From: a candidate division WOR-3 bacterium
GTDB lineage: Bacteria; Hydrothermota; Hydrothermia; LBFQ01
DNA: 64,000 nucleotides
Assembly (NCBI GenBank): GCA_039802605.1
Contig: JBDRWW010000004.1
Location: forward strand, 1-64,000
Reading direction: 5' to 3'
The position numbers were made by a program, and so were the translations under genes. Below, in pieces: positions 9,942 through 37,616 of the stretch (the first letter of the stretch is position 1; each line of letters opens with the position of its first letter). The notes beneath the pieces are model-generated. The model saw only the letters and a list, made by a program, of their open reading frames with translations, did not search any database and was not told where the DNA came from.

Positions 9942-10519
9942 AACAAGACGATGTTTTCCTGAGACCTTACAATCGTACCCTTATACAGGAAATCCACCTG
10001 CCTTAGGGTAAATTGGTAGTCGTCTTCCGTTAAAGCCGAGATGCAATCCATTGGGACTATAACATTATACCACCTTAACGCGGCGGAACCTGCGGTGTGT
10101 AATACACATATATTTGCAACCGTGCCGGTAATCACCAAGCTCTTTATACCCTTAACCCTTAGTATATGGTCAAGGGATGTGCCGTAAAATGCATCATACC
10201 TCAGCTTTTTAACGGTTATGTCCCTATCCGTAGGCCTTAACTCGTCCACAATTTCGGCCCCCCATGTGCCCGCAACGGCATGGACACCCCATATCTTAAA
10301 CTCCGGGTCATCTTCCATATGCCAGTCCTGTGTGTATATTATAGTTGAGTTCTTTTCCCTAAACTTTTCTATAAGGGATTTTATGGGTTTTATTGTCTTC
10401 GGTGCATCGGGTACAAATAAAGAACCCCTTTCATGGGCAAAATCGTTTTGCATATCGACGATTATTAATGCCGTTTCCTTTGCAGACAATTCCACCCTTT
10501 CTTTCACCTCGTATTTCAT
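9938..10519 (-). CDS. Isochorismatase-family cysteine hydrolase (nicotinamidase-like)
   Basis: ALIIVDMQNDF, QDWH, KLRYDAF, GTVANICV. Confidence 0.9.
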   Translation of the reverse strand: MKYEVKERVELSAKETALIIVDMQNDFAHERGSLFVPDAPKTIKPIKSLIEKFREKNSTIIYTQDWHMEDDPEFKIWGVHAVAGTWGAEIVDELRPTDRDITVKKLRYDAFYGTSLDHILRVKGIKSLVITGTVANICVLHTAGSAALRWYNVIVPMDCISALTEDDYQFTLRQVDFLYKGTIVRSQENIVLL

Positions 10520-10545
10520 AGTTTGATATTATAAAGTTGGGAATT

Positions 10546-11001
10546 TTATCTCATTAAATTACCCTTTGGCGTTTTAACGAACTTGGAAAAGTTGTACCTT
10601 TGAATAATTTCTTCCAATGTTATCTCGCCAAGGATGGAAATTATCTTTAACTGAACGGTATTCCAAACATCCCTTAAAACGCAATCCGTAAGGAAAAAAA
10701 TACACTCCATTTCCTCACCCGGAACGAGACATTTTACCACACCGTATGGCCCCTCTATGGCGTTTATAACATCCAAAAGGCTTATATCTTTGGCAGGCTT
10801 TGCTAAAACATATCCACCCCTCTTACCCCTAAGGCTTTTTATTAAACCCTTCCTCCTAAGCCTTACGAGAATCTGTTCTAAAAAGGCCATAGGAATGCCT
10901 TCCGCCTCGTATATCTGCGTTGAACTCGTGGGTTCGTTAGAAGAGGCTATATGTATGAGGGATTTTAGAGCGTATTCCGTTTTTAAAGTAAATTTTACCA
11001 A
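10546..11001 (-). CDS. Rrf2-family (IscR/CymR/NsrR-like) transcriptional regulator
   Basis: Start re-called at TTG 11001 (MVKFTLKTEYAL); FLEQILVRLRRKGLIKSLRGKRGGYVLAK; three C-terminal Cys. The longer ORF-track start runs through the tRNA. Confidence 0.85.
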   Translation of the reverse strand: MVKFTLKTEYALKSLIHIASSNEPTSSTQIYEAEGIPMAFLEQILVRLRRKGLIKSLRGKRGGYVLAKPAKDISLLDVINAIEGPYGVVKCLVPGEEMECIFFLTDCVLRDVWNTVQLKIISILGEITLEEIIQRYNFSKFVKTPKGNLMR

Positions 11002-11002
11002 G

Positions 11003-11076
11003 AGGTGGCGCGGGGATTTGAACCCCGGAATAGCGGTTTTGCAAACCGCCGCCTTAGTCCGCTTGGCTACGCCACC
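11003..11076 (-). tRNA. tRNA-Cys(GCA), CCA not encoded
   Basis: GGTGGCG/CGCCACC acceptor stem, GCGGT-TTGCAAA-ACCGC anticodon arm, GGTTCAAATCC T-arm, U discriminator. Confidence 0.95.
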
Positions 11077-11114
11077 AAAGTGAGTATTATACACCCGAAA
11101 GGTTTGAGGTTATA

Positions 11115-12422
11115 TTGCGCCTTTACAATCATATCTTGCCGAAACTACTAAAAAACGACTATGTCATATTAACCCTTTTGTTTGTGCTGAGTAGGGTGGT
11201 TTTTTATAAATTTTTACCCTTTGATACATTTTCCCTTATATGGGCATGGCAACTCTTAGACCCCCTTTGGCTTTACAATCTCCCCTTAAAGGATATATTC
11301 ATATACCTCCACATGCAACCTCCACTTTTTAACACATTTACGGCTATTAGTTTAAAAGTATTTGGAGATCCTACCCCCTTTTGGGAGATAACTTTCTTTA
11401 TCTTAGGATTTTTATGCGTTTTAATCGCATACGAAACGGGAAAACTTTTAAAAATCCGAAGGCGTATTCTATTGCCCATACTCGTATTCCTCCTCGTTTT
11501 CAACATAAACTTTATAGTTTATGAGAGATGGTACTTTTACACCTATCCCACGATGTTTTTGTTCCTTTTGTATATTTTTCTGTTTTTAAAAGGCAGGTAT
11601 TTTTTGGCATTTATGGTTTTGGCGCTCTTGATATTCACAAGGGCAACATTCCAAATAATACTTTTCCCCATAATTTGGCTTTTTGCTTTTTTCTTTATGC
11701 GTTCGGGTTTTAAAAGCGTTTTCTTATCCTCATTATTACCTTTTGCTATATCCCTAACCCTTTATTTAAAAAACCTTTTCCTATTCGGTGGGTTCTTTAC
11801 GAGTAGTTGGGGGGGTATGAACCTTTATAGGGGGATTTTGATTACGGGGAAAATTATACCCATTGAAAGGGATTGCAATTTTTTAAAGCCCTTCTCAAAG
11901 GTGAAGGATTACAAGGAGTATTTTTATTACGAGAAAACGGGTATAACAATACTTGACGAGGAAACGGAACCATACACGAAAAGGAACAATTATAACCACA
12001 TAATATACACAAAGGTTAATGACAAATACCTTAAACTTTCCTTTAGCTGCCTTACCAAAGAACCGTATAGGCTTTTAATTATGTTTGGGGTATCCCTTGT
12101 TAGGTTTTTAAAGCCTCCCTTTGAGTATTTGAGGGAATTTTCAAAGAGATTTAAATTCTTTTCGGTTCCTTATATGATTTTAACCCTTCTGTTTGTTCTC
12201 TCCATTTTTTTGCTTTTTGCCGATTGGAAAAACCCCAAAATCGCCTTCACCCTTCTAAACCTCATATATTACATCCTCATAACATCGCTTGACCCCGGCG
12301 AAAACAACCGTTTTAGGATGGTTGTAGAACCCATATTTATCCTATCCTTTGCATACGCTATAAACCGAATAACTTCCTCCAAGTGGAAATCGTCAAGAGC
12401 TCAAAAAGGGTTAAATATGTAA
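11115..12422 (+). CDS. Multi-pass membrane protein, possibly a GT-C-fold glycosyltransferase; start uncertain
   Basis: Many TM segments, YLHMQPPLFN motif, large periplasmic loop, C-terminal ENNRFR. Confidence 0.5.
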   Translation: MRLYNHILPKLLKNDYVILTLLFVLSRVVFYKFLPFDTFSLIWAWQLLDPLWLYNLPLKDIFIYLHMQPPLFNTFTAISLKVFGDPTPFWEITFFILGFLCVLIAYETGKLLKIRRRILLPILVFLLVFNINFIVYERWYFYTYPTMFLFLLYIFLFLKGRYFLAFMVLALLIFTRATFQIILFPIIWLFAFFFMRSGFKSVFLSSLLPFAISLTLYLKNLFLFGGFFTSSWGGMNLYRGILITGKIIPIERDCNFLKPFSKVKDYKEYFYYEKTGITILDEETEPYTKRNNYNHIIYTKVNDKYLKLSFSCLTKEPYRLLIMFGVSLVRFLKPPFEYLREFSKRFKFFSVPYMILTLLFVLSIFLLFADWKNPKIAFTLLNLIYYILITSLDPGENNRFRMVVEPIFILSFAYAINRITSSKWKSSRAQKGLNM

Positions 12423-14112
12423 ATCCCCTACCTTTCAAATTCTCAAAAATTACATACTCAACAAAATGTTTGGGTAGAATCTCCCCTATTAATGGATCGC
12501 TTTTAATATCCCTCACCCTATCCCTTAAAACCCCAGAAATCCATCCCTTAACGGGTGCCCCAAATCCCGCCTTTTTACGATAAATTACCTCCCTTGGTAA
12601 AACCCCCTTTAATGCCCTTTTCAAAATCTTCTTTCCGGAAAACATATCAACCTTTAAGTTTGAAGGGGTTTTTAGCGCCAATTCCAAAAGTTCGTTGCTC
12701 AACATTGGAACCCTTATCTCAAGGCCCACGGCCATAGAAGTTTTATCGGTATATAGCAAATTGTGGTCGGGTAAAAAGTGTTCAATGTCAAAAAGCATAC
12801 AGGAGTTTAACATATCGCCCTTTGGAAACCCATCTATTAAACGCTTAAAAACATCCCCGAAACCCTGATAATAAGACATCCATATCAAATAGTTTAAGGG
12901 GAATGGTCTGGAAGCGGCGGTTTTAAACTTGTTTATATCCCTTGCCAACCTTCCGAGTTTTCCCGATGAAAATGGCAATTCCGGGATATACTTCAAAAAA
13001 GGGAAATTTTTGGCAATTATCAAAGCCCTATACCTCGGATAACCACCCCAGAGTTCATCCCCTCCCGTGCCCGCAAGGGCGACCTTTAACCCCATTTCCC
13101 TCGCCCCCTTTGACAAAAGGTAGTTTGATATTGCGGCACCATCCCCAACGGGTTCTTCAAGGTGATAAACCACCCTTTCAAAATTCTCTTCATTAAACCT
13201 AACCTTTATGGGATGTAAGGAATGCCCGAACCTTTTGGCCACGATCCCCGCAAACCTATACTCGTCCGAAAATATATCCCTTTTTATATCCTCCCCCTCA
13301 AAGACCAAAGAGAATGCCCTTAAAGGCCTTTCGGTAAAGGATGCTATTGCGGATGAGTCCAACCCACCGCTCAGAAAAAGGCCAACCTCAACATCCGCAA
13401 TGAGGTGCATTTTAACGCTTTTTTCCAAAGCGTATTTTATATCATCCGGCTCAACCCTATCCTCGCCCAATTCCGCTTTATAAAATGGGAATACTTTAAC
13501 CTCCCCATCCTCGTATATTAACACATTTCCGGGTGGTAATTTGTATATCCCTTTAAACGCCGTTAAGGGATGGGGGCACCAGAGGAATGTTATGTGGTAT
13601 TTTAAAGCCTCCAAATTGGGGGATTTTTCAACAAAGGGTAGGGTTAAAAGGGGCTTTATTTCCGAAGAAAACGCCAGAATATTGCCCCTTCTCGTCCAAT
13701 AAAGGGGCTTTATCCCAAACCTATCCCTCGCCAACACCAACCTCTTACCATCCCAATAACCGAAGGCAAACATCCCGTTAAACCTTTTTATCCCTTCAAC
13801 CCCATAGACATCCAAAACCTTGAAGACAACTTCCGTATCCGAACGGCTCTTAAACCTTATACCCCTTTCAATTAGCTCCTTTTGCAAATCCAAAAAATTA
13901 TAAACCTCCCCGTTATAAACCAAAGCCCTACCCCCCTCAACCCATGGTTGTTTTCCACCCTCAATATCTATTATAGAAAGCCTACAATGCCCTAATACGA
14001 CCCCTTTATCCGTCCATATCCCCGAATCATCCGGACCCCTATGAGATAAAAGTCTTAAAGGGCGTTCCACATTTAAACCCTCATAATTAACAATTCCAAA
14101 AATCCCACACAT
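12358..14112 (-). CDS. asnB: Asparagine synthase (glutamine-hydrolysing) family amidotransferase
   Basis: N-terminal MCGIFG, HRGPD, YNGEVYN, RDRFGIKPLY, LSGGLDSS, GGDELWGGY. Confidence 0.9.
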   Translation of the reverse strand: MCGIFGIVNYEGLNVERPLRLLSHRGPDDSGIWTDKGVVLGHCRLSIIDIEGGKQPWVEGGRALVYNGEVYNFLDLQKELIERGIRFKSRSDTEVVFKVLDVYGVEGIKRFNGMFAFGYWDGKRLVLARDRFGIKPLYWTRRGNILAFSSEIKPLLTLPFVEKSPNLEALKYHITFLWCPHPLTAFKGIYKLPPGNVLIYEDGEVKVFPFYKAELGEDRVEPDDIKYALEKSVKMHLIADVEVGLFLSGGLDSSAIASFTERPLRAFSLVFEGEDIKRDIFSDEYRFAGIVAKRFGHSLHPIKVRFNEENFERVVYHLEEPVGDGAAISNYLLSKGAREMGLKVALAGTGGDELWGGYPRYRALIIAKNFPFLKYIPELPFSSGKLGRLARDINKFKTAASRPFPLNYLIWMSYYQGFGDVFKRLIDGFPKGDMLNSCMLFDIEHFLPDHNLLYTDKTSMAVGLEIRVPMLSNELLELALKTPSNLKVDMFSGKKILKRALKGVLPREVIYRKKAGFGAPVKGWISGVLRDRVRDIKSDPLIGEILPKHFVEYVIFENLKGRGFTYLTLFELLTISTWRKLFGL

Positions 14113-14798
14113 TACAAACTATCCCCAAAAATATCCCCTAAAATCATCCAATTTACATTTCCCAAATCCGGATTTTCCTTAAACTTTTTCACAAACTTCC
14201 ACTCGTCATACCATCCCCTATACTTAAAATCCTCCCTACCCAAATACTTTGTTAAAAAAGGTGCAACCTCTATTGGCAAAAATGTGTCAGCTTTTTCATC
14301 ATAAACCGCCAACAGTTTCGGATAGGACTTTGCCGCTGGAATGAACTTAACATCAACATATACATGCCAATAATCCCCTATTTTCACCTTTTCAATACTT
14401 TGGATTTCGTAGGATGGGTTTATAACCCTTAAATTCCCGTATATCTCACCAACCTTAAAATTACCCTTAAAAACCGATATTCTAAACCCTTTTTCCCCGT
14501 TATAGTTAAACCTTTCGCTAACCAAAAAGGCTTTTTTAAACTTCTTCTGTTTATCCAGGGTTAAGGCTAAAACATCCGCATAAACGGGGAATTCCCTATC
14601 CCCCAACTTGATAACCAACCTCTTCGGGAATATTAGTGCTGGTATGTATGCACCCTCCCTGACATATTCCGCGGGTATAAACCCAACAACCCTAAACCCA
14701 TCTCCATCTTTAACCACAAACATATTAACATTTAAAGGGGGTTTTTGCGGAAAACAGGAAAAGAGGAAAAGGGACAAGACAAAAAAACGGTTTTTCAC
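14112..14798 (-). CDS. Hypothetical lipoprotein
   Basis: Likely GTG start overlapping the ctaA stop; MKNRFFVLSLFLFSC lipobox. Confidence 0.55.
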   Translation of the reverse strand: MKNRFFVLSLFLFSCFPQKPPLNVNMFVVKDGDGFRVVGFIPAEYVREGAYIPALIFPKRLVIKLGDREFPVYADVLALTLDKQKKFKKAFLVSERFNYNGEKGFRISVFKGNFKVGEIYGNLRVINPSYEIQSIEKVKIGDYWHVYVDVKFIPAAKSYPKLLAVYDEKADTFLPIEVAPFLTKYLGREDFKYRGWYDEWKFVKKFKENPDLGNVNWMILGDIFGDSL

Positions 14799-15598
14799 CT
14801 TACAGATGCCCAAAAGGATATGCCTATTGCCAATAAGGTCAATGCGTAATGCATAGAAACCATTGTTGGACTTAACAGGCTATAAACCGAGAGCATTCCA
14901 AAAGCGATTATCAAAATAATCAGAATGAAAAGGGCGAAATTTACCCTCCTGTTTGATGAATCAAAGAGACCCAATAAGGATACCAACAGTATGAAATAAC
15001 CAAATAGCCTATGGGAGATTTGTAAAACCACATCTCCATTTAAAGGCATTCCCAAACATAGGAATATATCCTGTCCGCAGGAAAAACCCGCATTCGCCTT
15101 CCTTACGGCGGTTCCGAGTAAAACCTGTATAAAAAGCAATGTGAATATCCAGAAAGGGATGGATTTTATTCTTATGGAGAAATTCTCATCTTTGAACTTT
15201 TTCATAACAAAAACGGCTAAAACGAATGTTGATAGTCCAAAAAACGCGTGGGATATGGAAACCCAAAAGGGCATTTTGAGTATTACGGTCAAACCCCCTA
15301 TTAAGATCTGTGCGATCACAAATGCGGATAAAATATAACCAACCTTTGAAAGGAAGGAGCCTTTAAAATCTTTATGAATTATAAATGTCGTTCCGAATAT
15401 GAATATTGCCGTTATAGCGGCCAATGCCCTGTGTATGTATTCAAGTTGCGCTCCCAATTGCTCGGGTGGTAATAAACTCCCATAGCACAAAGGCCAATCC
15501 GGACAACCCAAACAAGCCCCATAAGCCGCAACGGCACTACCAAAAACGAGTAAGGTGTAGGTTAAAACAACCGTTAATAAAACCATTCCCCTTTTCAT
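14795..15598 (-). CDS. ctaA: Heme A synthase (COX15/CtaA)
   Basis: GCPDWPLC, EYIHR, ISH and HRL heme-ligand motifs; about 8 TM segments. Confidence 0.85.
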   Translation of the reverse strand: MKRGMVLLTVVLTYTLLVFGSAVAAYGACLGCPDWPLCYGSLLPPEQLGAQLEYIHRALAAITAIFIFGTTFIIHKDFKGSFLSKVGYILSAFVIAQILIGGLTVILKMPFWVSISHAFFGLSTFVLAVFVMKKFKDENFSIRIKSIPFWIFTLLFIQVLLGTAVRKANAGFSCGQDIFLCLGMPLNGDVVLQISHRLFGYFILLVSLLGLFDSSNRRVNFALFILIILIIAFGMLSVYSLLSPTMVSMHYALTLLAIGISFWASVR

Positions 15599-15626
15599 CG
15601 GTAAAGGGGGTATTCTAAGGCTGTCA

Positions 15627-16850
15627 TTAAGCCTTTAAATATACTATGAATTCCGAACCCTTTCCAACTTCACTTTTAACCTCAATTTTACCACCCAATA
15701 GTTTAACGAATTTTTTAACAATGAACAAACCCAAACCCGTACCCCCCTCCTTTGTGGTAAAGAATGGCTCAAAAATCCTGTTTAAATCCTCCTTATCTAT
15801 ACCCTTACCAAAGTCCCTTATGGATACATACTTATATATTTCCCCATCTTTATGGGATGTTCCGCAGGATATAATTATCTTTCCCTTTATCGGAGAGGCA
15901 TCAATGGCATTTGAAATTAAGTTGTGTAAAATCTCATAAAGTATATCCCTATCCGTCTTCAACTCAAAGTTCTCTGGTATCTCCAACTTTATATCCAAAT
16001 TCCGCGAATTAATCTTGTAGGACAAGTCTTCGCATATTTCTTTAACCATCTCTTCCAATGAAAACTCCGATACTTTCAGAGCGGGTTTTATTACGCTTAA
16101 AACCCTGCTATGAAGCCTTTTTATCCTACCTACGGATTTTTTCAGTTTATCCTTTACGCCTTCATCCTTTACCGTCTCAACCAAAAGGCTTAGAGACATA
16201 AGGGAATTCTTTATATCATGCGATATTAAACTTGAAATAATACCCGCTATTGCAAACCTTTCAAGCTTGGGATCAACCTGCGGCACCTCGGTTAGAATAA
16301 CTATTTTTACCTTTGCAAGGTTGTGGAAGGTATCAACAATTCTAACCTTGTAAGTTCCCGACTTTAATTCCACGGTTTCCCCGTCGTTTAAACCCCTAAA
16401 ATCAACCTCCTCGTTTATCTTTAACGCCCTTTGGTTCATATACAAAACCCTATCCCTACTTATTACCGCTATTGGGTAGGGTATATCGTTAAAAACGGTA
16501 AAATTCCAAACATACTCGGGCTTAAAAATTATGTAGTATTCCGCATTCCCCTTGCTCTCAACGGGTACAACCCGCATTTCCACGGGGATGTGTTCACCCC
16601 GGGCGTTTAAAAGGGAAATCCTTGTACTCGTCGCATTCCAGAGTTTAAATGCCGTATCAACCGATGCCCTGAAAACCCTCCTATGTTGTGGTGATATTAA
16701 CACCTCAACAACCTTACCCTTTAACATATCAACATCATACCCTATATTCTCCGCCCTTTTGTTGACTTCCATTATTTCCAAGGATGAATTTACCTTAAAA
16801 ACGATTTCATCCACAACATCAAGGATTTCCATACCCGTTAAAAGGTTCAT
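15627..16850 (-). CDS. Cytoplasmic PAS-domain sensor histidine kinase
   Basis: N-terminal PAS domain; H-box SHDIKN, N-box NLISNAIDA, DFGKGI, FEPFFTTK, GTGLGL. Confidence 0.9.
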   Translation of the reverse strand: MNLLTGMEILDVVDEIVFKVNSSLEIMEVNKRAENIGYDVDMLKGKVVEVLISPQHRRVFRASVDTAFKLWNATSTRISLLNARGEHIPVEMRVVPVESKGNAEYYIIFKPEYVWNFTVFNDIPYPIAVISRDRVLYMNQRALKINEEVDFRGLNDGETVELKSGTYKVRIVDTFHNLAKVKIVILTEVPQVDPKLERFAIAGIISSLISHDIKNSLMSLSLLVETVKDEGVKDKLKKSVGRIKRLHSRVLSVIKPALKVSEFSLEEMVKEICEDLSYKINSRNLDIKLEIPENFELKTDRDILYEILHNLISNAIDASPIKGKIIISCGTSHKDGEIYKYVSIRDFGKGIDKEDLNRIFEPFFTTKEGGTGLGLFIVKKFVKLLGGKIEVKSEVGKGSEFIVYLKA

Positions 16851-17437
16851 ACCTTTGCCTTTTGCAATACACTCTTCAATACGAGTTTGGATATTAAATC
16901 CAAGGTTTCAAAAACCCCCTTGCCTTGCGAGGCTATGCTTTCAACATAAGGATATCCCTTTTCGTTTAACAACTTGTTCAACTCTTCAACGCTCATAATA
17001 TCCTGTAAATCCCTTTTGTTGTACTGTAACACCAAAGGTATATCGTCTAAACTCAAACCCTGTTCCGCCAAAAACTCCTTCATCTCTTGAAATATAACCT
17101 TGTTCTCCTCCGCGCGGCTTTTTTGAGAATCCGCCACAAAGACTATACCGTCTGCACCCTTTAATACGAGTTTTCTTGAAGTTTTATAAAAGTACTGCCC
17201 GGGTACGGTATATAGGTGAAACCTCACTTTAAAACCACCTCCTATTGGAACCTCAACGGGTAAGAAGTCAAAGAACAATGTCCTTTCACCTTTCGTATCT
17301 ATGGAAACCATTTCGCCCCTATGTTCGGGTTTAATCCTCCTGTGTATAACTATAAGGTTTGTTGTTTTTCCGCTAACCGCGGGTCCGTAATACACGATCT
17401 TTACATTTATTTCCCTCTTGGCTATATCAACGACCAT
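16847..17437 (-). CDS. mglA: MglA-family small Ras-like GTPase
   Basis: KIVYYGPAVSGKTTN, RTLFFDF, LYTVPGQ, QYNKRD. Confidence 0.9.
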   Translation of the reverse strand: MVVDIAKREINVKIVYYGPAVSGKTTNLIVIHRRIKPEHRGEMVSIDTKGERTLFFDFLPVEVPIGGGFKVRFHLYTVPGQYFYKTSRKLVLKGADGIVFVADSQKSRAEENKVIFQEMKEFLAEQGLSLDDIPLVLQYNKRDLQDIMSVEELNKLLNEKGYPYVESIASQGKGVFETLDLISKLVLKSVLQKAKV

Positions 17438-17438
17438 A

Positions 17439-17885
17439 CTACTCCTCCCCTAAGATGTCCTTGAAGGAGAACCCTTCCAGTAGCGAGAGGTCGGAACCGA
17501 GTATTTCCGTAATGTCCTGTTGTTGTGAGAGTATTCCGGCTAAGGCATCGGCGGCTTTTCTAACCTCAACGAGGATAACACCCAAGGGGGCATCGGAGTC
17601 AACGGTTATGGCGATAACACCAACATTGGAAATGCCCACCACTACGAGCATCATTTCTTCGCCGCGCACATATATCTCCCTAAGCTTACCCCCTTTTATC
17701 TCTTGAAGGGTGTGCTCTCCCAAACCCAACAGGGCTGCGGACATGGCACCAAAAGAGGATTCGTTTGTTCCGGGAAACAAATGGGAAGCTATGAGAATCC
17801 CCTCGGAATTTACAACGGCCGCAGATTTAATCTGCGGGTTCTTTTTAACCATTGCCTTTAAAATCTGTTCTACTTGGTTATTCAT
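17439..17885 (-). CDS. mglB: Roadblock/LC7 (MglB-like) protein
   Basis: AAVVNSEGILIAS, GAMSAALLGLGE, LGVILVEVR; adjacent to mglA; SD AGGAGG upstream. Confidence 0.8.
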   Translation of the reverse strand: MNNQVEQILKAMVKKNPQIKSAAVVNSEGILIASHLFPGTNESSFGAMSAALLGLGEHTLQEIKGGKLREIYVRGEEMMLVVVGISNVGVIAITVDSDAPLGVILVEVRKAADALAGILSQQQDITEILGSDLSLLEGFSFKDILGEE

Positions 17886-17909
17886 TTTCTACCTCCTTTA
17901 ACAGGTATT

Positions 17910-19193
17910 TTAAGGTTGCTCAACTTTGTTGGCAAGTAGCATTCCCAACATAACCCCACTATGCGCTCCGGAATAAAAATCCGGATGAACTATTATTTCA
18001 CCCACGGTTGGGATACCGAGGAAGGACAAGCCCAACGCACTCCTCAACGCGGATTTATCCTTATCTATATCATCACCTAAGGCTTGTATCCTCATATGGT
18101 TTTCAAATATTATCATTCCGGCGGAGCTGGCATTTTGTATATACCCCAAGGCTTTTTGAACACCCTTACGGGTACTCTCTATCATCTCTTCAAGGTTTGC
18201 TTCAACAATCCAAACGGTATCGTTTGTGGAAACATCTGTCATTATTCTTAGACCGGATGTATCAAGGGACTGGATTATTGAACCCTTAAACCTACCGGCC
18301 TTTGACGGATCCGCCACGGCCACCTGAAACCTCGAAAGGATCTTTCCCGCTTTAACGGGATCTTTTAATTCGTTTTCGTTATACCCCCTACGCTCAAACA
18401 AACCCCTGAGTATATCAATTACAGGCGTATCGTTCAGCTCCTTGATTACGGAATCCTCCGCGGAGGTTACCTTAAAAGGTATAGTTGGGTGAAATCCATA
18501 AGACAGCAATGTGCCAAACTTGACATCGCTTTCAATTATTAAGAATGCGAAATGGTCGGAATATGTATCGGCGTTATATATTATTGACCAAGGGGAAGGA
18601 TTGAAATCCCCAACAACACCGACAAAAACCGCATCAAATATTTCCGAAACCCTAATCAAAACCCTTGACATCTTTACGGATAACCCCTCTAAAACGTTCG
18701 GTACTATTCCCAGCAGGTAGGTGTATTTCCTCTTTATCTTTAACTCTTCAAACCTTTGGCGGATTTCTTTTACCAATTCATCCTCACCTTTGGCCAGGCC
18801 TTTAATAATAAAAGGGGTAATATCGGCGCTATCCGTTGCCCAAAGGGCAACTCCTACACCCGTATCCGCTATGGTATCCTCGTTGTATATCGTATCGCTA
18901 ACTATTGCGCCTATTATCGGAACGCCTTCTAAGGTTTTCTTTATGGCCTCTAAAACCACCTTTTTATCATAGTTTGCGGTCATAACCACAAAAGCCATTG
19001 AAGGATCTTCCCCGAGTTTTTCCAAAGCCTTATTTATGGCTTGTGAGCCGGCCAAAAACGGTTTTTCTTGGGTTGAAATATATGTTGCAAATCTGCGGCT
19101 TGTTATATTCCCACCACCCTCTATTCTCCTCTCCCTTTCGACGCCACCCCCATGCCTTTCAATCCTCCTTAACCACTGTTCTGAAAAATACAT
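17910..19193 (-). CDS. FIST N/C-domain sensory protein
   Basis: FIST-like pattern (IIGAIVSDTI, GFHPT, VTSAEDSVIKELNDTP, FLGIPTVGEI); start re-called at ATG 19193, 9 nt after TATAAT. Confidence 0.7.
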   Translation of the reverse strand: MYFSEQWLRRIERHGGGVERERRIEGGGNITSRRFATYISTQEKPFLAGSQAINKALEKLGEDPSMAFVVMTANYDKKVVLEAIKKTLEGVPIIGAIVSDTIYNEDTIADTGVGVALWATDSADITPFIIKGLAKGEDELVKEIRQRFEELKIKRKYTYLLGIVPNVLEGLSVKMSRVLIRVSEIFDAVFVGVVGDFNPSPWSIIYNADTYSDHFAFLIIESDVKFGTLLSYGFHPTIPFKVTSAEDSVIKELNDTPVIDILRGLFERRGYNENELKDPVKAGKILSRFQVAVADPSKAGRFKGSIIQSLDTSGLRIMTDVSTNDTVWIVEANLEEMIESTRKGVQKALGYIQNASSAGMIIFENHMRIQALGDDIDKDKSALRSALGLSFLGIPTVGEIIVHPDFYSGAHSGVMLGMLLANKVEQP

Positions 19194-19215
19194 GGTTAAA
19201 ATATTATAAACCCGT

Positions 19216-19665
19216 TCAATTTGTGTGTGGGTAAAAATGTCTAACCATAAGGTATGCGTCCGATCCATCGGAATAAAAACCCCTTAAAACCTTCTCCCTT
19301 ACAAAGTTAAACCTTTCGTATAGCCTTATGGCGGCAACATTATTTGTTTGTACATGCAATTGGATTTCTCCTTTTATGGATTTTAAGGATTCTTCCAATA
19401 AAGCCTTTCCAATACCCTTTCCCCTATGCTCGGGTAAAACCCCTATTAATGTCAATTCCCATAGTTCTTCGTTAAATTTTCTAAAAAAGGCAAATCCAAC
19501 GGGTTTCCCCTCCAATTCCGCCAGAAATACCTTTGAACCCATTTTTATATAACCCAAAACCGACGAATAATGCCACCTTACAAAATCCGGAAATATTTTC
19601 CCGCTCAACTCTTCTACCAATAAAGCACCCGATAGATCGCTTTTCTCCACTATTTTAACCTTCAT
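19216..19665 (-). CDS. GNAT acetyltransferase, RimI-like
   Basis: IGVLPEHRGKGIGKALL, LHVQTNNVAAIRLYERFNF, FYSDGSDAYLM. Confidence 0.85.
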   Translation of the reverse strand: MKVKIVEKSDLSGALLVEELSGKIFPDFVRWHYSSVLGYIKMGSKVFLAELEGKPVGFAFFRKFNEELWELTLIGVLPEHRGKGIGKALLEESLKSIKGEIQLHVQTNNVAAIRLYERFNFVREKVLRGFYSDGSDAYLMVRHFYPHTN

Positions 19666-20227
19666 TTTTCGTTGGAAGTATAACCTCTATGTCCCTTAAA
19701 TGGGTTTTTTTATAACTACCCGTATAATAAAAGTACAAACCCAGTGAAGTTGCTATTGCATCAAGGACATCAACGGGATGGGCCTTCCAATCCAATTTTA
19801 ACGGGTTTATATCCAAATCGGAAATGTACTTATCCAATTTCTTAAACCTAAAATTCAACCCCATAAGGAGTTCGCCGGATGGTATGTTCCCATTGCCATA
19901 TATGGATTGCGAGTATATAGCAAAGGATCTTTTTCTCCTGCGGTTGTTGTAGGCAATAAACCCCTTTAACTCCTCAATGTACATGTTCAATCTCAGTTTG
20001 GGGAGTTTGTATTTGCCAAGTTTTTCCAAATAATGAACATTAAAAGCAAACACCTTTGTGTTGAATTTCTTACATACGGCCGTAATCTCTTCCTTATTTT
20101 CCAAAATACCAACGCTTTGCAAGTGCAACTTCCCATTTTTATAGATTAACACAGAATAAACGGGTTTGCACTTTGTAAAAAATGGCCTAAAATTTAACCC
20201 TATGAATACATCTACGCTTTCATCCAT
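19655..20227 (-). CDS. Hypothetical protein, possibly DUF429/RNase H-like fold
   Basis: N-terminal FIGLNF strand and C-terminal DVLDAIA helix resemble DUF429. Confidence 0.4.
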   Translation of the reverse strand: MDESVDVFIGLNFRPFFTKCKPVYSVLIYKNGKLHLQSVGILENKEEITAVCKKFNTKVFAFNVHYLEKLGKYKLPKLRLNMYIEELKGFIAYNNRRRKRSFAIYSQSIYGNGNIPSGELLMGLNFRFKKLDKYISDLDINPLKLDWKAHPVDVLDAIATSLGLYFYYTGSYKKTHLRDIEVILPTKNEG

Positions 20228-20254
20228 AACCCGTAATTCTAACGGATGGTTGTT

Positions 20255-21115
20255 TTAATTTCCAACCCTATCTGGAACTTTTATGACCTTATAATTTTTT
20301 ATAACCCGTGGTTTTAATATAACTTTCGCAAGTCTTAGGGTTATATCGTTTAAACTACCCGTGGAATTTTCAACAACTATACCAAACTTACCATCCGACA
20401 AACGGAAACCATAACACCCCCTATAAACCATTTTTATTTCCCTTATAGGCCTTATATTGTAATTCCTAAAATCCTCATAATCCAAAAGGAACACATTCAA
20501 ACCCCCACCCCTTCTTGTTTCCTTACAAATATTAAACCTTATATCCCTACGCTCTAAAAAATTATCACCCCACAGAAACCTTAACGAATCGTCATAACCC
20601 GTTGGGGCAATCCAGAGAATATATTCGCCATATTTATCATTTTGGAAAACCGGCTCCCCATCAAATAGGGCGCCGTAAAATGAGTTGGAAAATGGAGGTA
20701 TTATTATCCTCCACTTTTTATACATTACAACCACGGTATCCCATAGCGTATCCTCGTAATAAACCCTTTTTTCCTTAAAGACCACACGGGAATTGAAGCT
20801 TTTATAAGCGCTATCCCCGTTAAACCTAAGGATTTTAAACTTGACCCTATTCCTTTCCCACAATCCTAATTGTAGGAATGTCAGGAAAAACGGCTCTACG
20901 GTATCCGATCGTATGGTCCATGATATGTTTTTAACATACACTTCGGACAATATGGGTTTTTGATCGTATTTGCCGAGATATATACCATCCAATTCCCTTT
21001 CGGCCTCAAGGGTTATACTTATACTGTCCCCGGGGGCGGCAAAAAAGTAAAATGTATAGGTCTTGGGTATCCAAAAAAAGGAGAAAATGCCTATTACCGT
21101 ATCAACTATAACCAA
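20255..21115 (-). CDS. Hypothetical protein
   Basis: 286-codon ORF overlapping the thpR end; no recognised motif. Confidence 0.55.
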   Translation of the reverse strand: MVIVDTVIGIFSFFWIPKTYTFYFFAAPGDSISITLEAERELDGIYLGKYDQKPILSEVYVKNISWTIRSDTVEPFFLTFLQLGLWERNRVKFKILRFNGDSAYKSFNSRVVFKEKRVYYEDTLWDTVVVMYKKWRIIIPPFSNSFYGALFDGEPVFQNDKYGEYILWIAPTGYDDSLRFLWGDNFLERRDIRFNICKETRRGGGLNVFLLDYEDFRNYNIRPIREIKMVYRGCYGFRLSDGKFGIVVENSTGSLNDITLRLAKVILKPRVIKNYKVIKVPDRVGN

Positions 21116-21629
21116 GTTTCAAAACTTTTAAGGGTTTGTATATGGCATTGGGTTTTGCCAATATACTTTGATATACCACGACTTCGCCCGCAATAAAGGT
21201 TTCCCTTTTTATTTTAAAACCCTCAACATTTACGGGCTTTCCCGTTCTGGCTATCGTAATGTGGGGGACAAAGGGTTTATCCCTTGGAGGCAAACCCAGG
21301 CTATCAACTATGCCATCAACCCTTTTGCTCAATTCTATAAGCATCTTTTCTTCCTCAACCCCTACCCAGATAACCCTTGCGCCAAACTCCGTTGGAAAAC
21401 CGCCAATTGAGTTAAATGTTAGGGTAAAGGATTTACCCAGATCCCCTATTGAATCCAAAAGGTTAGCGCATTCCCTATCGCCGATGTCCCCAATAAACCT
21501 AAGGGTTATGTGGAGATTTTCCTTTGGAACGGGTTTTATAAATGGGTATTTTTTATAAATCTCCTTCGCGGCATCGTAAATAACCCTTTTTGCATCCTCG
21601 GGAATATTTAGTGCTATAAAAACCCTCAT
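21102..21629 (-). CDS. thpR: RNA 2',3'-cyclic phosphodiesterase (2'-5' RNA ligase)
   Basis: MRVFIAL start; two HxT motifs (HITL, PHITIAR); RVIWVG. Confidence 0.9.
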   Translation of the reverse strand: MRVFIALNIPEDAKRVIYDAAKEIYKKYPFIKPVPKENLHITLRFIGDIGDRECANLLDSIGDLGKSFTLTFNSIGGFPTEFGARVIWVGVEEEKMLIELSKRVDGIVDSLGLPPRDKPFVPHITIARTGKPVNVEGFKIKRETFIAGEVVVYQSILAKPNAIYKPLKVLKLGYS

Positions 21630-22054
21630 ATTATCTTGGGTGAGAAGACGATTAAACTGTAAATCATAAATATTGCAACCAAAACCATAACCAAACCCGC
21701 AATTATCCGCTGCCTATTTAATGAAGTTGTATATGGATATACGGGTTTTGATGGCCTGCCCAGAAAGAAACCCAACTCCGTAAATATTAACCTCAAACCG
21801 TTTAAACCGTGGATTGCTATTCCCACAACCAATATCCACTCTAAGAAATGTATGATCGGACCTTCCGCCACCTTACTCATGGCCCTTTCCCAAGCCTCGG
21901 GTCCGAAGGTGCGGGAACTAGTAACGATTATGTGCAATGGAAGGTAAAGGGCCAAGCCTACCCCTGTAATCCTATGCAGGGCAAAAAGGTATGCTTCAAT
22001 GTTATACCTCCCTCCAAACAGCCACCTTATTAATCCTCTTCTCTTGTTTAACAT
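21626..22054 (-). CDS. sdhC: Succinate dehydrogenase cytochrome b556 subunit
   Basis: LHRITGVGL and HGLNGLRLI motifs; 3 TM segments. Confidence 0.8.
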   Translation of the reverse strand: MLNKRRGLIRWLFGGRYNIEAYLFALHRITGVGLALYLPLHIIVTSSRTFGPEAWERAMSKVAEGPIIHFLEWILVVGIAIHGLNGLRLIFTELGFFLGRPSKPVYPYTTSLNRQRIIAGLVMVLVAIFMIYSLIVFSPKII

Positions 22055-22120
22055 AGGCTATTATTCTAAGGTTGTGATATTCCCCATTTGGGAACTTTTC
22101 CGCTTTAAAATACCTTCCTC

Positions 22121-22205
22121 GCCGGGGTGGCGGAATCGGCAGACGCAGGGGACTTAAAATCCTCTGGGGCTAATCCCCGTGCGGGTTCGAGTCCCGCCCC
22201 CGGCA
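22121..22205 (+). tRNA. tRNA-Leu(TAA), CCA not encoded
   Basis: GCCGGGG/CCCCGGC acceptor stem, GGGGA-CTTAAAA-TCCTC anticodon arm, long variable arm, GGTTCGAGTCC T-arm, A discriminator. Confidence 0.95.
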
Positions 22206-22206
22206 T

Positions 22207-22467
22207 TTGTTTAAAAAACCCCCTTTGTTTTATGCTTTCCTTTTTATTATTGGTTTTATCATGGGGGAAATCCTCGCAAATTCCTTACACACCCTATTGC
22301 CCAAAAGCGGAGCCTTGGAATTTATCACGGAAACCGTAATCGTAGGTTTTGAAAGCATAAAACTGGACCTATATTTTCTTTTAATAAACCTCGGTTTAAA
22401 GCTTAGGGTTTCCGTACTGGGGATCCTTATGGCCTTGGTTTTTATAGTAATTGGGAGGTTTTTATGA
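22207..22467 (+). CDS. Small membrane protein, DUF4321-like
   Basis: IIGFIMGEIL and LDLYFLLINLGLKLRVSVLGIL patterns; TTG start. Confidence 0.65.
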   Translation: MFKKPPLFYAFLFIIGFIMGEILANSLHTLLPKSGALEFITETVIVGFESIKLDLYFLLINLGLKLRVSVLGILMALVFIVIGRFL

Positions 22468-23117
22468 TAGCGCAAATAGGAGGGGATAGGTTTGAAGTGG
22501 TTGAAAGCGAGGATAGGATTGATTTAAGTAAAAGGGGTTTAAGCGGGTGGATAGTTTTACACCCCGAGGAATTGATATATATAAACTATTTGGGCAAAAG
22601 GGTTCCCTTTTGTGGAAATGCGACAAGGGTTGTTGGATATATAAACGCAAAGGGTAGGGGATTAAAGGAATATACCGTTTATGCAAATGGTCCTAAGAGG
22701 GTTTTTATAAACGGCGATATTGTCGGAATAGAGGTTGATGTTGATTATGAAAACTTTGGAGAGTTTTCCATTGTTAAACTTGAGGGGGTTTCTCATATAG
22801 TATTTTACAAGAAAAACGGAGAATTGCCGGTGAAGGTTTTGGCCGAGGGTTTTCAAAAGGTTCTTGAAGGATACCATGTAAATTATTACTACAACTATGA
22901 GAACTACCTTTTTGTTAGGACATGGGAATACGGTTATATTTATGAACCCGGCGGATGCGCAACCGGGGGGTTGTCCTGCGGGGTTGATTGGATAATGAGA
23001 AGGGGTTTAAGCGGTGTTGTTATAAAAACCCTTTCGGGGGATTACGGTAGGGTTTTTATAAAGGGGGAAAAGTTTGTACTTGAGAACAAAATATTCATAA
23101 GTAGGATGCCAGCATGA
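22464..23117 (+). CDS. Divergent diaminopimelate epimerase (DapF)-like protein
   Basis: PFCGNATR and RTWEYG...GGCATG correspond to the two catalytic Cys motifs; the N-terminal HGxGNDF motif is absent. Confidence 0.6.
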   Translation: MIAQIGGDRFEVVESEDRIDLSKRGLSGWIVLHPEELIYINYLGKRVPFCGNATRVVGYINAKGRGLKEYTVYANGPKRVFINGDIVGIEVDVDYENFGEFSIVKLEGVSHIVFYKKNGELPVKVLAEGFQKVLEGYHVNYYYNYENYLFVRTWEYGYIYEPGGCATGGLSCGVDWIMRRGLSGVVIKTLSGDYGRVFIKGEKFVLENKIFISRMPA

Positions 23118-35856: not shown

Positions 35857-37616
35857 AGCTAGTAATATATTCCAAAGGGAATAGGTTATATTTGGCATTG
35901 GGAGAGTTTGAGAAGGGGGTTTTCTTAGGGGAGGATGAACTGGGTAGGCCTGTGAAACTCAAAAGGGTGGATTTTTTATGCGGGGATGTAAAGGTTAAAC
36001 CGGATTTTAATACCATTAGAGAACTCGTTAAGGAGGATGATATAAGGCAGGTTTGGGAACTCGGCGAGGACTTGGATATTAAAACCTTATGCGAAATCCT
36101 CGGGAACGATTCCCCGGAATTTAAAGCATCCGTTTATTTGGTTTTGAACTCAACCCCTTATTTCAAGTTGGAGGGAGAAATACTGCGCAGGAGGGATGAA
36201 AATCAGGTAAAAAGTATAATCGAGGCCGAAAAGGCGAAGGATAGGGAAGAGGAGATATTAAAGGGCATTGAAAATATCTTAAAGGGAATGAAGACGGAAA
36301 TTTTGGAGGAGGTCTTAAATATTTACAATTACGGTTCCGGCGATAGGGATGTTGAAAGGGTTATAAAGAAAATTCCGGACTTTTGGAATAAATTCTTGGA
36401 TGCGGGTCTTGTGGGTATAACGGATATAAGCTTTGAGATCAGGGCACTGATGAACGATAACACTGGGGATTGTATCGGTATGGATTTCCATTACGAGGAC
36501 TTAACGCACTTGGATACTTTTTCCGTAGACGATGAGGATACGGAAGACATAGACGATGCCATATCGATTTGCGGGAACAAATTGTACATACACATAGCGC
36601 TACCTTATGCCTTTTGCCGGAGGGGTTGTGAGGCGGATAGGGAGGCCTTGAATAGGGGGGCAACCCTATACCTTCCGGATGGGAAATGGCACATGTATCC
36701 CAAAGAGGTGGTAAAAAACTCATCCCTTTTGCCCGGATACGAAAGGCCAACCCTTACTATGGAGGTTGATTTTGATAAAAATTTTGGGATAAAGGGATAC
36801 AGGTTTAAGGTGGCAAAGGTTATAAACAAGAGAAGGCTTTCTTACAAGAATGCCGAGGAAACGCTTAAAAGTATGGGTATATGGGAAGACCTCATGCGCA
36901 TAAGCGGTTATCTTAGGGATTTGAGGGTTAAAAGGGGTGGGGTGGTAATAGACAACCACTTTTTAAAGGTTTTGTTAAGGGATGGTGAAATCCTCATAAG
37001 CGTTGAACCCCCAAACGATGCTTCAAGGATTATAACCGAATTGATGATATTTTACAACTCAAAGGCGGGTGAATTTTTGGCCAATAGAGGAATTCCCGCC
37101 ATTTTTAGGGTTCAAAACGAACCCGTTGAAGGCGAAATTCCCGAACCCAACGACCCATTATACTATCCAAAGATAAAATCCCTTTCAAAGCCCATAACAT
37201 CAAGTACAAAACCGGGACCCCACTTAACAACCGGCGTGGATTACTATACTAGGGTCACATCGCCAATAAGGAGGTATTCCGATGTTTTAAACCAACACCA
37301 AATTTTGGCCGCTTTGGGATACATCGAGCCTTTAAAAGAGGAAGTATTAGCCGAAGAAATGCAAAGGGCACTATCCGGAGAATATAAGAGGCATAATGCC
37401 CAAAGAAACAGGACAAACTTTTTGATTTTGCATAAAATACTTTTGGACGGTTTGGTTGAGGGCATAGCTTATAACGAAACCTATGTGTTCTTACCCGAGT
37501 ATTTGTTTTTAAACGCAAAGAGCACAAAAAGGTTGGAGGTTGGAAAGCGTTATAAATTTAGGGTTAAAAGGGTCTTCTTTTCGTCCCAAAAGGTTATCCT
37601 TTCCCCCTTAGAATAA
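35853..37616 (+). CDS. RNB-domain exoribonuclease (RNase II/R family)
   Basis: FSVDDEDTEDIDDAIS catalytic motif, TLYLP, TSPIRRYSD. Confidence 0.85.
   Translation: MKLVIYSKGNRLYLALGEFEKGVFLGEDELGRPVKLKRVDFLCGDVKVKPDFNTIRELVKEDDIRQVWELGEDLDIKTLCEILGNDSPEFKASVYLVLNSTPYFKLEGEILRRRDENQVKSIIEAEKAKDREEEILKGIENILKGMKTEILEEVLNIYNYGSGDRDVERVIKKIPDFWNKFLDAGLVGITDISFEIRALMNDNTGDCIGMDFHYEDLTHLDTFSVDDEDTEDIDDAISICGNKLYIHIALPYAFCRRGCEADREALNRGATLYLPDGKWHMYPKEVVKNSSLLPGYERPTLTMEVDFDKNFGIKGYRFKVAKVINKRRLSYKNAEETLKSMGIWEDLMRISGYLRDLRVKRGGVVIDNHFLKVLLRDGEILISVEPPNDASRIITELMIFYNSKAGEFLANRGIPAIFRVQNEPVEGEIPEPNDPLYYPKIKSLSKPITSSTKPGPHLTTGVDYYTRVTSPIRRYSDVLNQHQILAALGYIEPLKEEVLAEEMQRALSGEYKRHNAQRNRTNFLILHKILLDGLVEGIAYNETYVFLPEYLFLNAKSTKRLEVGKRYKFRVKRVFFSSQKVILSPLE

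Follow-up and report, generated by a model that had tools for sequence, protein, structure and literature searches.

How is a protein gene expressed when its start codon lies a single base behind a transfer RNA (tRNA) gene? The question is raised by a stretch of 64,000 nucleotides (nt) from a candidate division WOR-3 bacterium of the Hydrothermota (contig JBDRWW010000004.1, positions 1 to 64,000 of the forward strand; this whole stretch is called the window here, and its contig C4), in which ARAGORN finds exactly two tRNA genes, each followed after one base by the TTG start codon of an open reading frame (ORF). The genome comprises 1.65 megabases in 23 contigs, with 41% G+C, and is 90% complete. 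Here, we report that tRNA genes abutting protein genes are the rule in this genome, and from comparison of the sequences we consider it on balance probable that tRNA and downstream gene are transcribed as one RNA which is cut near the discriminator base, yielding messenger RNAs (mRNAs) that are made near-leaderless by processing.

The first junction is on the minus strand. A −10 hexamer, TATAAT (11086..11091), ends 9 nt before the first base (+1) of tRNA-Cys(GCA) at 11003..11076, whose discriminator is the T at 11003; a one-base trailer, the C at 11002, leads directly to the TTG (11001-10999) of a gene for an Rrf2-family regulator of 151 amino acids (aa) (MVKFTLKTEYAL..., 10546..11001), and this C together with the TT of the TTG makes up the conserved Y-T-T described below. 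The second junction is on the plus strand, where the hexamer TAAAAT (22106..22111) again ends 9 nt before +1, tRNA-Leu(TAA) extends over 22121..22205 with the A at 22205 as discriminator, the sequence reads a one-base trailer (T, 22206), and a TTG at 22207 opens a gene for a small, DUF4321-like membrane protein of 86 aa (MFKKPPLF..., 22207..22467). CCA is not encoded in either tRNA. The ends of both tRNAs were fixed by the 7-base-pair acceptor pairing and U8; for tRNA-Cys, the 3' end given by ARAGORN (11002) was one base too far, and pairing and U8 place the discriminator at 11003. The initial annotation had claimed these coordinates, discriminators, one-base trailers and TTG starts, the −10 box 9 nt upstream of each tRNA and the missing CCA, and all of them were recovered by ARAGORN, strand reading and acceptor pairing. 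It had also claimed that both proteins begin where their families normally begin. This holds fully for the Rrf2 ORF, which matches TIGR00738 over its full length (124.3 bits, cut-off 73.3; residues 3-133 on profile positions 2-131) and aligns residue 1 to position 1 of TIGR02944. For the 86-aa ORF the support is indirect and comes from conservation of the N-terminus: the stretch between the TTG and an internal ATG is kept as protein in relatives, in which the internal ATG is missing; the Pfam DUF4321 match itself (26.2 bits, residues 37-78) is borderline, below the cut-off of 27.

Genome-wide, there are 46 tRNA genes, each tRNA species is present in a single copy, and CCA is encoded in 0 of the 46. 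The bases behind the discriminator follow a Y-T-T pattern: trailer base +1 is C or T in 46/46, +2 is T in 44/46 and +3 is T in 42/46, and the pattern also stands behind tRNAs that have no downstream gene. The gap was counted as the number of bases from the discriminator to the first ATG, GTG or TTG of an ORF of at least 50 aa, for the 42 tRNAs with no other tRNA directly behind them. The commonest layout is a gap of 1 nt (12 tRNAs, both window junctions included); nine tRNAs have a gap of 3 nt, four of 2 nt, two of 4 nt and one of 0 nt, seven fall at 5-12 nt, one is at 19 nt, and six have a gap above 40 nt or no ORF. Cumulatively, the gap is 0-1 nt in 13/42 tRNAs, at most 4 nt in 28/42 and at most 12 nt in 35/42. 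The corresponding shares are 2.2%, 5.5% and 13% for 50,000 random genome positions, and 4.9%, 9.4% and 16% for 20,000 random positions that begin with YTT; against the latter, the binomial p is 3e-19 for the gaps of at most 4 nt and 8e-22 for those of at most 12 nt. The tabulation of discriminator-to-start distances over all tRNAs, which had been put forward as a check on the two window cases, returns a clearly non-random spacing, in favor of the finding.

The tRNAs themselves carry promoters. TAWAAT ends 8-16 nt (mostly 9-13 nt) before +1 in 41/46 tRNAs, the ones without it being the four inner tRNAs of an Ile-Pro-Pro-Pro-Val cluster and tRNA-Gln(TTG), and the lineage-specific consensus is TTTCAnCCTTAWAAT, without a spaced −35 box (in the window, 11086-11110 on the minus strand and 22095-22111 on the plus strand). 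The picture is different for the 35 genes that abut a tRNA with a gap of at most 12 nt: a TAWAAT within 25 nt upstream was found in 0/35, both window genes included, and a Shine–Dalgarno (SD)-like motif at −17 to −5 in 0/35, in agreement with the claim of the initial annotation that there is no room for an SD sequence between tRNA and start. The stretch upstream of these 35 starts belongs to the tRNA, being its acceptor and T arm; that this 3' part supplies the next gene with an SD sequence or −10 box was considered and rejected on these counts.

The same promoter motif indicates how the rest of the genome is translated. C[CT]TTA[TA]AAT occurs in 645 copies, of which 35 precede tRNAs; behind 419 of the other 610, an ORF of at least 60 aa begins within 150 nt, and the motif-to-start distances peak sharply at 5-9 nt, a class with 195 cases, whereas 0-4 nt has 23 and 10-14 nt has 46. 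Looked at from the ORFs, an early candidate start has TAWAAT 5-9 nt ahead of it in 417 of the 2144 that are at least 100 aa long, compared with about 39 expected (0.48% of internal in-frame start codons times 3.8 candidates per ORF), and SD-like motifs are barely enriched in the same ORFs (366 observed, about 334 expected). A regular-expression search for a short conserved motif of the 3' end of 16S ribosomal RNA (rRNA) had no match in the genome, where the rRNA is possibly unassembled. The sharp 5-9 nt peak together with the weak SD enrichment indicates that most transcription units are translated at or near the 5' end of the RNA, i.e., that this genome, by its sequence, is mainly leaderless and SD-poor. 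With such a leaderless habit, a gene behind a tRNA would need either a new −10 box after the tRNA or removal of the tRNA to expose its start.

We favor removal of the tRNA, in the following sequence of events. Transcription would start from the strong conserved promoter TTTCAnCCTTAWAAT a few bases before the tRNA, and one RNA would comprise the tRNA and the downstream ORF or ORFs. RNase P (RNase, ribonuclease) would take off the short 5' leader, an endonuclease would cut at or next to the discriminator, ahead of the conserved Y-U-U, and the tRNA would then receive its CCA; the downstream fragment, whose 5' end would lie 0-4 nt before a UUG or AUG, would be translated by the usual leaderless route of the organism. 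The co-transcription, the exact cut site, the translation of the cut product and the identity of the nuclease are what we infer here. The initial annotation had proposed that tRNA maturation by RNase Z releases a near-leaderless mRNA; the release of such an mRNA is supported by the spacing, by the abutted genes having neither a −10 box nor an SD sequence of their own, by the leaderless genome, by the family profiles, by conservation and by the contrast with a sister genus (g3), where a new −10 box lies behind the tRNA, and the part of the proposal that names RNase Z is not borne out.

The machinery was searched for in the genome with the following outcome. RNase P RNA was found (211 bits), and the suggested check for a CCA-adding enzyme returned two class-II CCA-type nucleotidyltransferases (385 and 456 aa). 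RNase Y is present (635 bits; C4:112817-114328), as are a 434-aa metallo-beta-lactamase (MBL) RNase of the beta-CASP type (247 bits to aCPSF1; C8:20128-21429) and two RNB-family 3' exonucleases, one of them a 704-aa RNase R-like protein on contig C1. The other, the second RNB-family (RNase II/R-like) exoribonuclease, is located in the window itself, at 36495-37316 of the plus strand within a 600-aa ORF (PF00773, 170 bits). U-rich sequence right after the discriminator is a criterion of RNase Z substrates, as known from work on the Bacillus subtilis enzyme, and the tRNAs of this genome have both the U-rich trailer and the missing CCA of that substrate type. Only some relatives have RNase-Z-like ORFs, about 230-260 aa long; these have no counterpart in this genome, where tblastn with four of them gave only a weak match, to the beta-CASP gene. 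Five MBL-fold ORFs with PF12706 were considered as RNase Z and set aside, as NCBIfam assigns them to a YtkL-type hydrolase, the beta-CASP RNase, two lactamase/lactonase-like proteins and a GloB-like protein.

Several observations weigh against processing at the discriminator as we propose it. Searches for RNase Z (TIGR02651) found nothing in this genome at E ≤ 0.001 and no match above the family cut-off in 31 genomes (this one and 30 relatives); neither RNase E/G nor RNase PH was found at E ≤ 0.001 in this genome; and the only sign of RNase J is a weak match of 19.3 bits (E = 2e-4, cut-off 400 bits) on the beta-CASP gene. As the genome is only 90% complete, the absence of a nuclease is not proven. 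Moreover, 7/42 tRNAs are outside the pattern, with a gap above 12 nt or no ORF, and among these tRNA-Gln(CTG) stands before tuf with an ordinary SD sequence, AAGGAGGT, in a 19-nt spacer (C8:52917-54345); this perfect SD sequence indicates that SD-led initiation persists for at least one highly expressed gene in an SD-poor genome. In Escherichia coli, leaderless translation strongly prefers a 5'-terminal AUG, and UUG is poor. The available RNA data cover neither junction: for window positions 10300-22800, two raw-read hot-spring metatranscriptomes returned 4 and 0 reads in about 3% of each run, and two sets of RNA contigs gave coverage only in parts of 16.1-22.4 kilobases (kb), with neither junction bridged. 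Among the RNA contig matches listed, 12 pieces at 16.1-21.7 kb match the window without mismatch; contigs on tRNA-Leu run into unrelated sequence and therefore derive from other organisms.

Given that RNase Z was not found, the mechanism needs either another endonuclease or an exonuclease-based explanation. The latter would be that the uncut co-transcript is itself the mRNA and keeps the tRNA on its 5' side, perhaps as a stabilizer, while the tRNA would come from other copies of the RNA, through cuts in the ORF and trimming by 3' exonucleases. We regard this, the main rival, as unlikely, and little likelihood attaches to what it would imply, that tRNA and protein are alternative fates of one RNA. 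It agrees with the inventory above, in which RNase Z, RNase E/G and RNase J were not found and two RNB-family 3' exonucleases and RNase Y were, and there is a precedent in Mycoplasma, where CCA-less tRNAs are matured at the 3' end in one step by the exonuclease RNase R. Against it, a closed, GC-rich acceptor stem of 7 base pairs would place any start codon 0-4 nt after it within the footprint of the mRNA channel of the ribosome, and no SD sequence is at hand; each tRNA species is single-copy, so every transcript that ends as a tRNA would waste its mRNA; and the Y-U-U is kept after all discriminators, also those of tRNAs without a gene behind them, which argues for a site-specific event at this place. 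Minimum-energy folds of tRNA plus the first 40 nt of the ORF at the two window junctions are not cloverleaves, with z-scores of −2.0 and −0.4, and speak for neither reading.

If the tRNA is instead cut from its mRNA, the nuclease is not a recognizable RNase Z, and the candidates are the 434-aa beta-CASP RNase and RNase Y. A bolder form of this reading, which we put forward only tentatively, is that tRNA punctuation has evolved independently in this free-living lineage: tRNA genes would act as promoter-processing cassettes for about 35 housekeeping units, a nuclease other than RNase Z would cut between N73 and YUU, and the output of the downstream genes would be tied to tRNA transcription and maturation. 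The beta-CASP enzyme is possibly this nuclease. As part of the same joint reading, and with the same reserve, a single cut might create both the 3' end of the tRNA to which CCA is added and an mRNA with a 5'-monophosphate, its first base 0-4 nt ahead of a UUG or AUG that the ribosome reads as a start.

Both window junctions recur in relatives. tRNA-Cys and the Rrf2 gene stand together with a gap of 1-2 nt and a TTG start in 12/12 genomes of the family (5/5 in the same genus and 7/7 in the sister genus), with 75-96% identical DNA; a second family of the order has a different gene there, its TTG at a gap of 0-3 nt behind tRNA-Cys, in 4/4 genomes, and in the remaining families tRNA-Cys precedes tRNA-Leu or shows gaps of 6-113 nt. 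The junction of tRNA-Leu(TAA) with the 86-aa gene is found at 16/16 readable junctions of the order, always with TTG, 15 of them at gap 1 and one at gap 3; two further loci ended at contig edges and were not counted. Orthologues of the 86-aa protein have 84-88 aa, its N-terminus LFxKPPxFY is kept in 10/10 junctions of the family, and two other families have the same gene 12 and 10 nt behind tRNA-Leu(TAA), with ATG.

To see how far the short spacers extend, up to 30 tRNA loci were sampled in each of seven relatives, again for tRNAs without a tRNA directly behind. Gaps of 0-4 nt, which make up 28/42 in our genome (genus g1, family f1), account for 17/27 in G003 of the same genus, 11/30 in G010 (genus g2, family f1) and 13/26 in G017 (genus g4, family f2); they account for 2/28 in G012 (genus g3, family f2), and for 0/30, 0/30 and 0/31 in G019 (family f3), G020 (family f4) and G024 (family f8), respectively. 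Among the sampled relatives, spacers have collapsed to 0-4 nt in three genera of one order. Six tRNAs of G012 have gaps of 17-30 nt, and four of these (Asn, Phe, Gly and Val, with gaps of 19-21 nt) have a new TAWAAT in the trailer, as in TTTCCATTATAATTTC with an ATG at gap 19; in several of these trailers the fresh box lies about 7 nt before the next start codon. In G019, A/U-rich spacers of 10-16 nt precede the start codon in 16/30 sampled tRNAs, and G024 encodes CCA in 14/34 tRNAs. The trailer promoters of G012 and the A/U-rich spacers of G019 are two other ways to express genes behind tRNAs. From the gaps in these relatives, tRNA-headed units seem to be old in the class.

The promoters of G012 bear on a further explanation, namely that the abutted genes have primary transcription starts of their own, driven by an unmodeled type of promoter inside the tRNA gene, and that the close neighborhood merely reflects genome compaction. 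The genome is indeed compact, most of its genes are leaderless, and genes behind tRNAs in genus g3 carry a −10 box of their own. We nevertheless hold this to be quite improbable for our genome, in which 0/35 abutted genes have a TAWAAT in reach and any −10 site would fall into the acceptor and T stems, which are GC-rich and fixed in sequence by the function of the tRNA. RNA polymerase prefers to start on purines and would rarely begin a primary transcript with the U of UUG, yet TTG is the start codon that is enriched here.

The start codons themselves were checked by scanning against NCBIfam the ORFs at all 36 junctions whose gap does not exceed 20 nt. Families were matched by 28/36 ORFs, and 8/36, the 86-aa ORF among them, have none. 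Residue 1 is aligned to profile position 1 in L28, MurA, a FadD-like ligase, L33, EF-Tu and a 2-hydroxyacid dehydrogenase, and residue 2 to position 1 in Asd and PdxT; in Prs, residue 3 is aligned to position 1, in AhcY residue 3 to position 2, and in PurB residue 5 to position 4. Asd (MRIAIVGATGLVGR) and an epimerase (MDEVLITGVGGFIG) have the Rossmann glycine motif GxxGxxG at residues 7-14, which makes a later start impossible. By these alignments, the start codons directly behind tRNAs are real, many of them being checked against family profiles. That they are chance products or mis-called, i.e., that the TTGs are a by-product of T-rich trailers and the true starts lie further downstream, is scarcely credible: Y-T-T does mean that a G at +4, present in 12/46 tRNAs, is enough to create a TTG at gap 1, and the 8/36 ORFs without a family escape the start check, but 28/42 gaps of at most 4 nt stand against 9.4% at YTT-constrained positions (p = 3e-19), the profile alignments of many genes begin at residues 1-5, and the N-termini of both window genes are kept as protein across genera, unlike the internal ATG of the 86-aa ORF.

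TTG is the start codon in 23/35 tRNA-abutted genes and in 63/417 promoter-abutted ones (Fisher p = 2e-10). It is probably favored behind tRNAs because its two U's double as trailer bases +2 and +3. This double use of bases is the simplest reading of the TTG excess: the layouts are N73-Y-UUG at gap 1, Y-U-UUG at gap 2 and Y-UU-UUG or Y-UU-AUG at gap 3, and U is preserved at both of these trailer positions in all three. In addition, a weak start codon may hold down the translation of RNAs made from strong tRNA promoters. For annotation, the rule follows that gene starts right behind tRNAs, often TTG, are real, and that SD-based gene finders are likely to mis-call them.

Some of the genes behind tRNAs deserve a word of their own. 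In the unit at 10546-11076 (minus strand), the nearest named relatives of the Rrf2 ORF behind tRNA-Cys include IscR, a SUF regulator and the cysteine-metabolism regulator CymR, and it is possible, judged by this kinship, that the tRNA-Cys unit is functionally tied to cysteine or iron-sulfur control through Rrf2. Downstream of the 86-aa gene, an ORF of 217 aa with no family and no Pfam match occupies 22464..23117 on the plus strand; a 4-nt overlap of its ATG with the stop codon of the 86-aa gene makes it a probable member of the same tRNA-Leu-headed unit. Elsewhere in the genome, a 160-aa ORF abutting tRNA-Leu(CAG) (C5:46491-47179) matches the first about 70 and the last about 100 of the 417 positions of LysA and looks like an internally deleted lysA remnant. 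Behind tRNA-Leu(TAG) (C2:41485-45103), a 10-nt gap is followed by a gene for a BREX-type PglX-like adenine methyltransferase of 1134 aa, a defense gene whose position may mark an island insertion site. The tRNA-Ala(TGC) unit (C14:12367-15599) continues with a 718-aa SppA that has a long N-terminal extension and, directly behind it, a 291-aa MBL-fold hydrolase.

Should the cut prove real, a free-living bacterium would use tRNA punctuation on a genome scale, and the arrangement would link housekeeping genes, L28, L33, MurA, Asd, PurB, Prs, NuoA, NuoH and AhcY among others, to tRNA promoters. About 35 natural mRNAs would then have leaderless 5' ends that come from processing and not from transcription, and they would test whether leaderless initiation accepts a 5'-monophosphate, leaders of 1-3 nt and UUG. 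With RNase Z, RNase E/G, RNase J and RNase PH all undetectable, it would also open the search for whichever enzyme generates the 3' ends of the tRNAs.

How does this arrangement compare with known systems? A search of full-text literature, with subscription journals outside its coverage, found no genome-wide arrangement of leaderless genes abutting tRNAs in bacteria, and in the part of PMC4227106 that was available, on RNA of Aquificales, the words "leaderless", "trailer" and "UTR" (untranslated region) do not occur. The nearest bacterial case is the thrU-tyrU-glyT-thrT-tufB operon of E. coli, in which, according to PMC12439589, tRNAs and a protein gene are under one promoter. Our tRNA-Gln(CTG)-tuf pair, with AAGGAGGT in its 19-nt spacer, is like it; the 35 other cases, with the start 0-12 nt from the discriminator, leave no room for an SD sequence, and the arrangement spans most tRNA genes and not one operon.

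Primary leaderless mRNAs are known from Actinobacteria and Deinococcus-Thermus (excerpts of PMC3848588 and PMC4633059), and UUG makes up 3% in Propionibacterium acnes according to PMC3848588. As those excerpts have it, such mRNAs resemble ours in having neither a 5' UTR nor an SD sequence and in tolerating leaders of a few nt, and they differ in that their 5' ends are transcription starts, with a triphosphate and AUG or GUG, whereas ours would be processed, with a monophosphate, and have UUG in 23/35. The hallmark of primary leaderless genes, a −10 box about 5-9 nt before the start, is present at about 400 other ORFs of this genome and at 0/35 of the abutted genes. In plant mitochondria and haloarchaea, t-elements, i.e., tRNA-like structures, set the ends of mRNAs; there, as we propose here, tRNA-processing enzymes define mRNA ends, but the tRNAs in our case are genuine, single-copy and essential, not mimics.

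The closest parallel is the tRNA punctuation of mitochondria, reportedly described by Ojala, Montoya and Attardi in 1981 and cited in PMC10941002. In both systems, tRNAs abut coding sequence with a near-zero spacer (here 0-4 nt in 28/42), and the excision of tRNAs, which sets the 5' ends of leaderless mRNAs without SD sequences in mitochondria, is proposed from sequence to do likewise here. Unlike in mitochondria, where tRNAs flank mRNAs on both ends within one long transcript, 41/46 tRNAs have a promoter box of their own and mark only the 5' side of their units, and the host is a free-living bacterium that has about 400 further leaderless units, which start directly at promoters. RNase P RNA is present and, unlike in mitochondria, no RNase Z of the ELAC2 type was found in the 90% complete genome. 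Finally, mRNAs released here would keep a Y-U-U remnant of 1-3 nt and would be read, in contrast to those of mitochondria, mainly from UUG.

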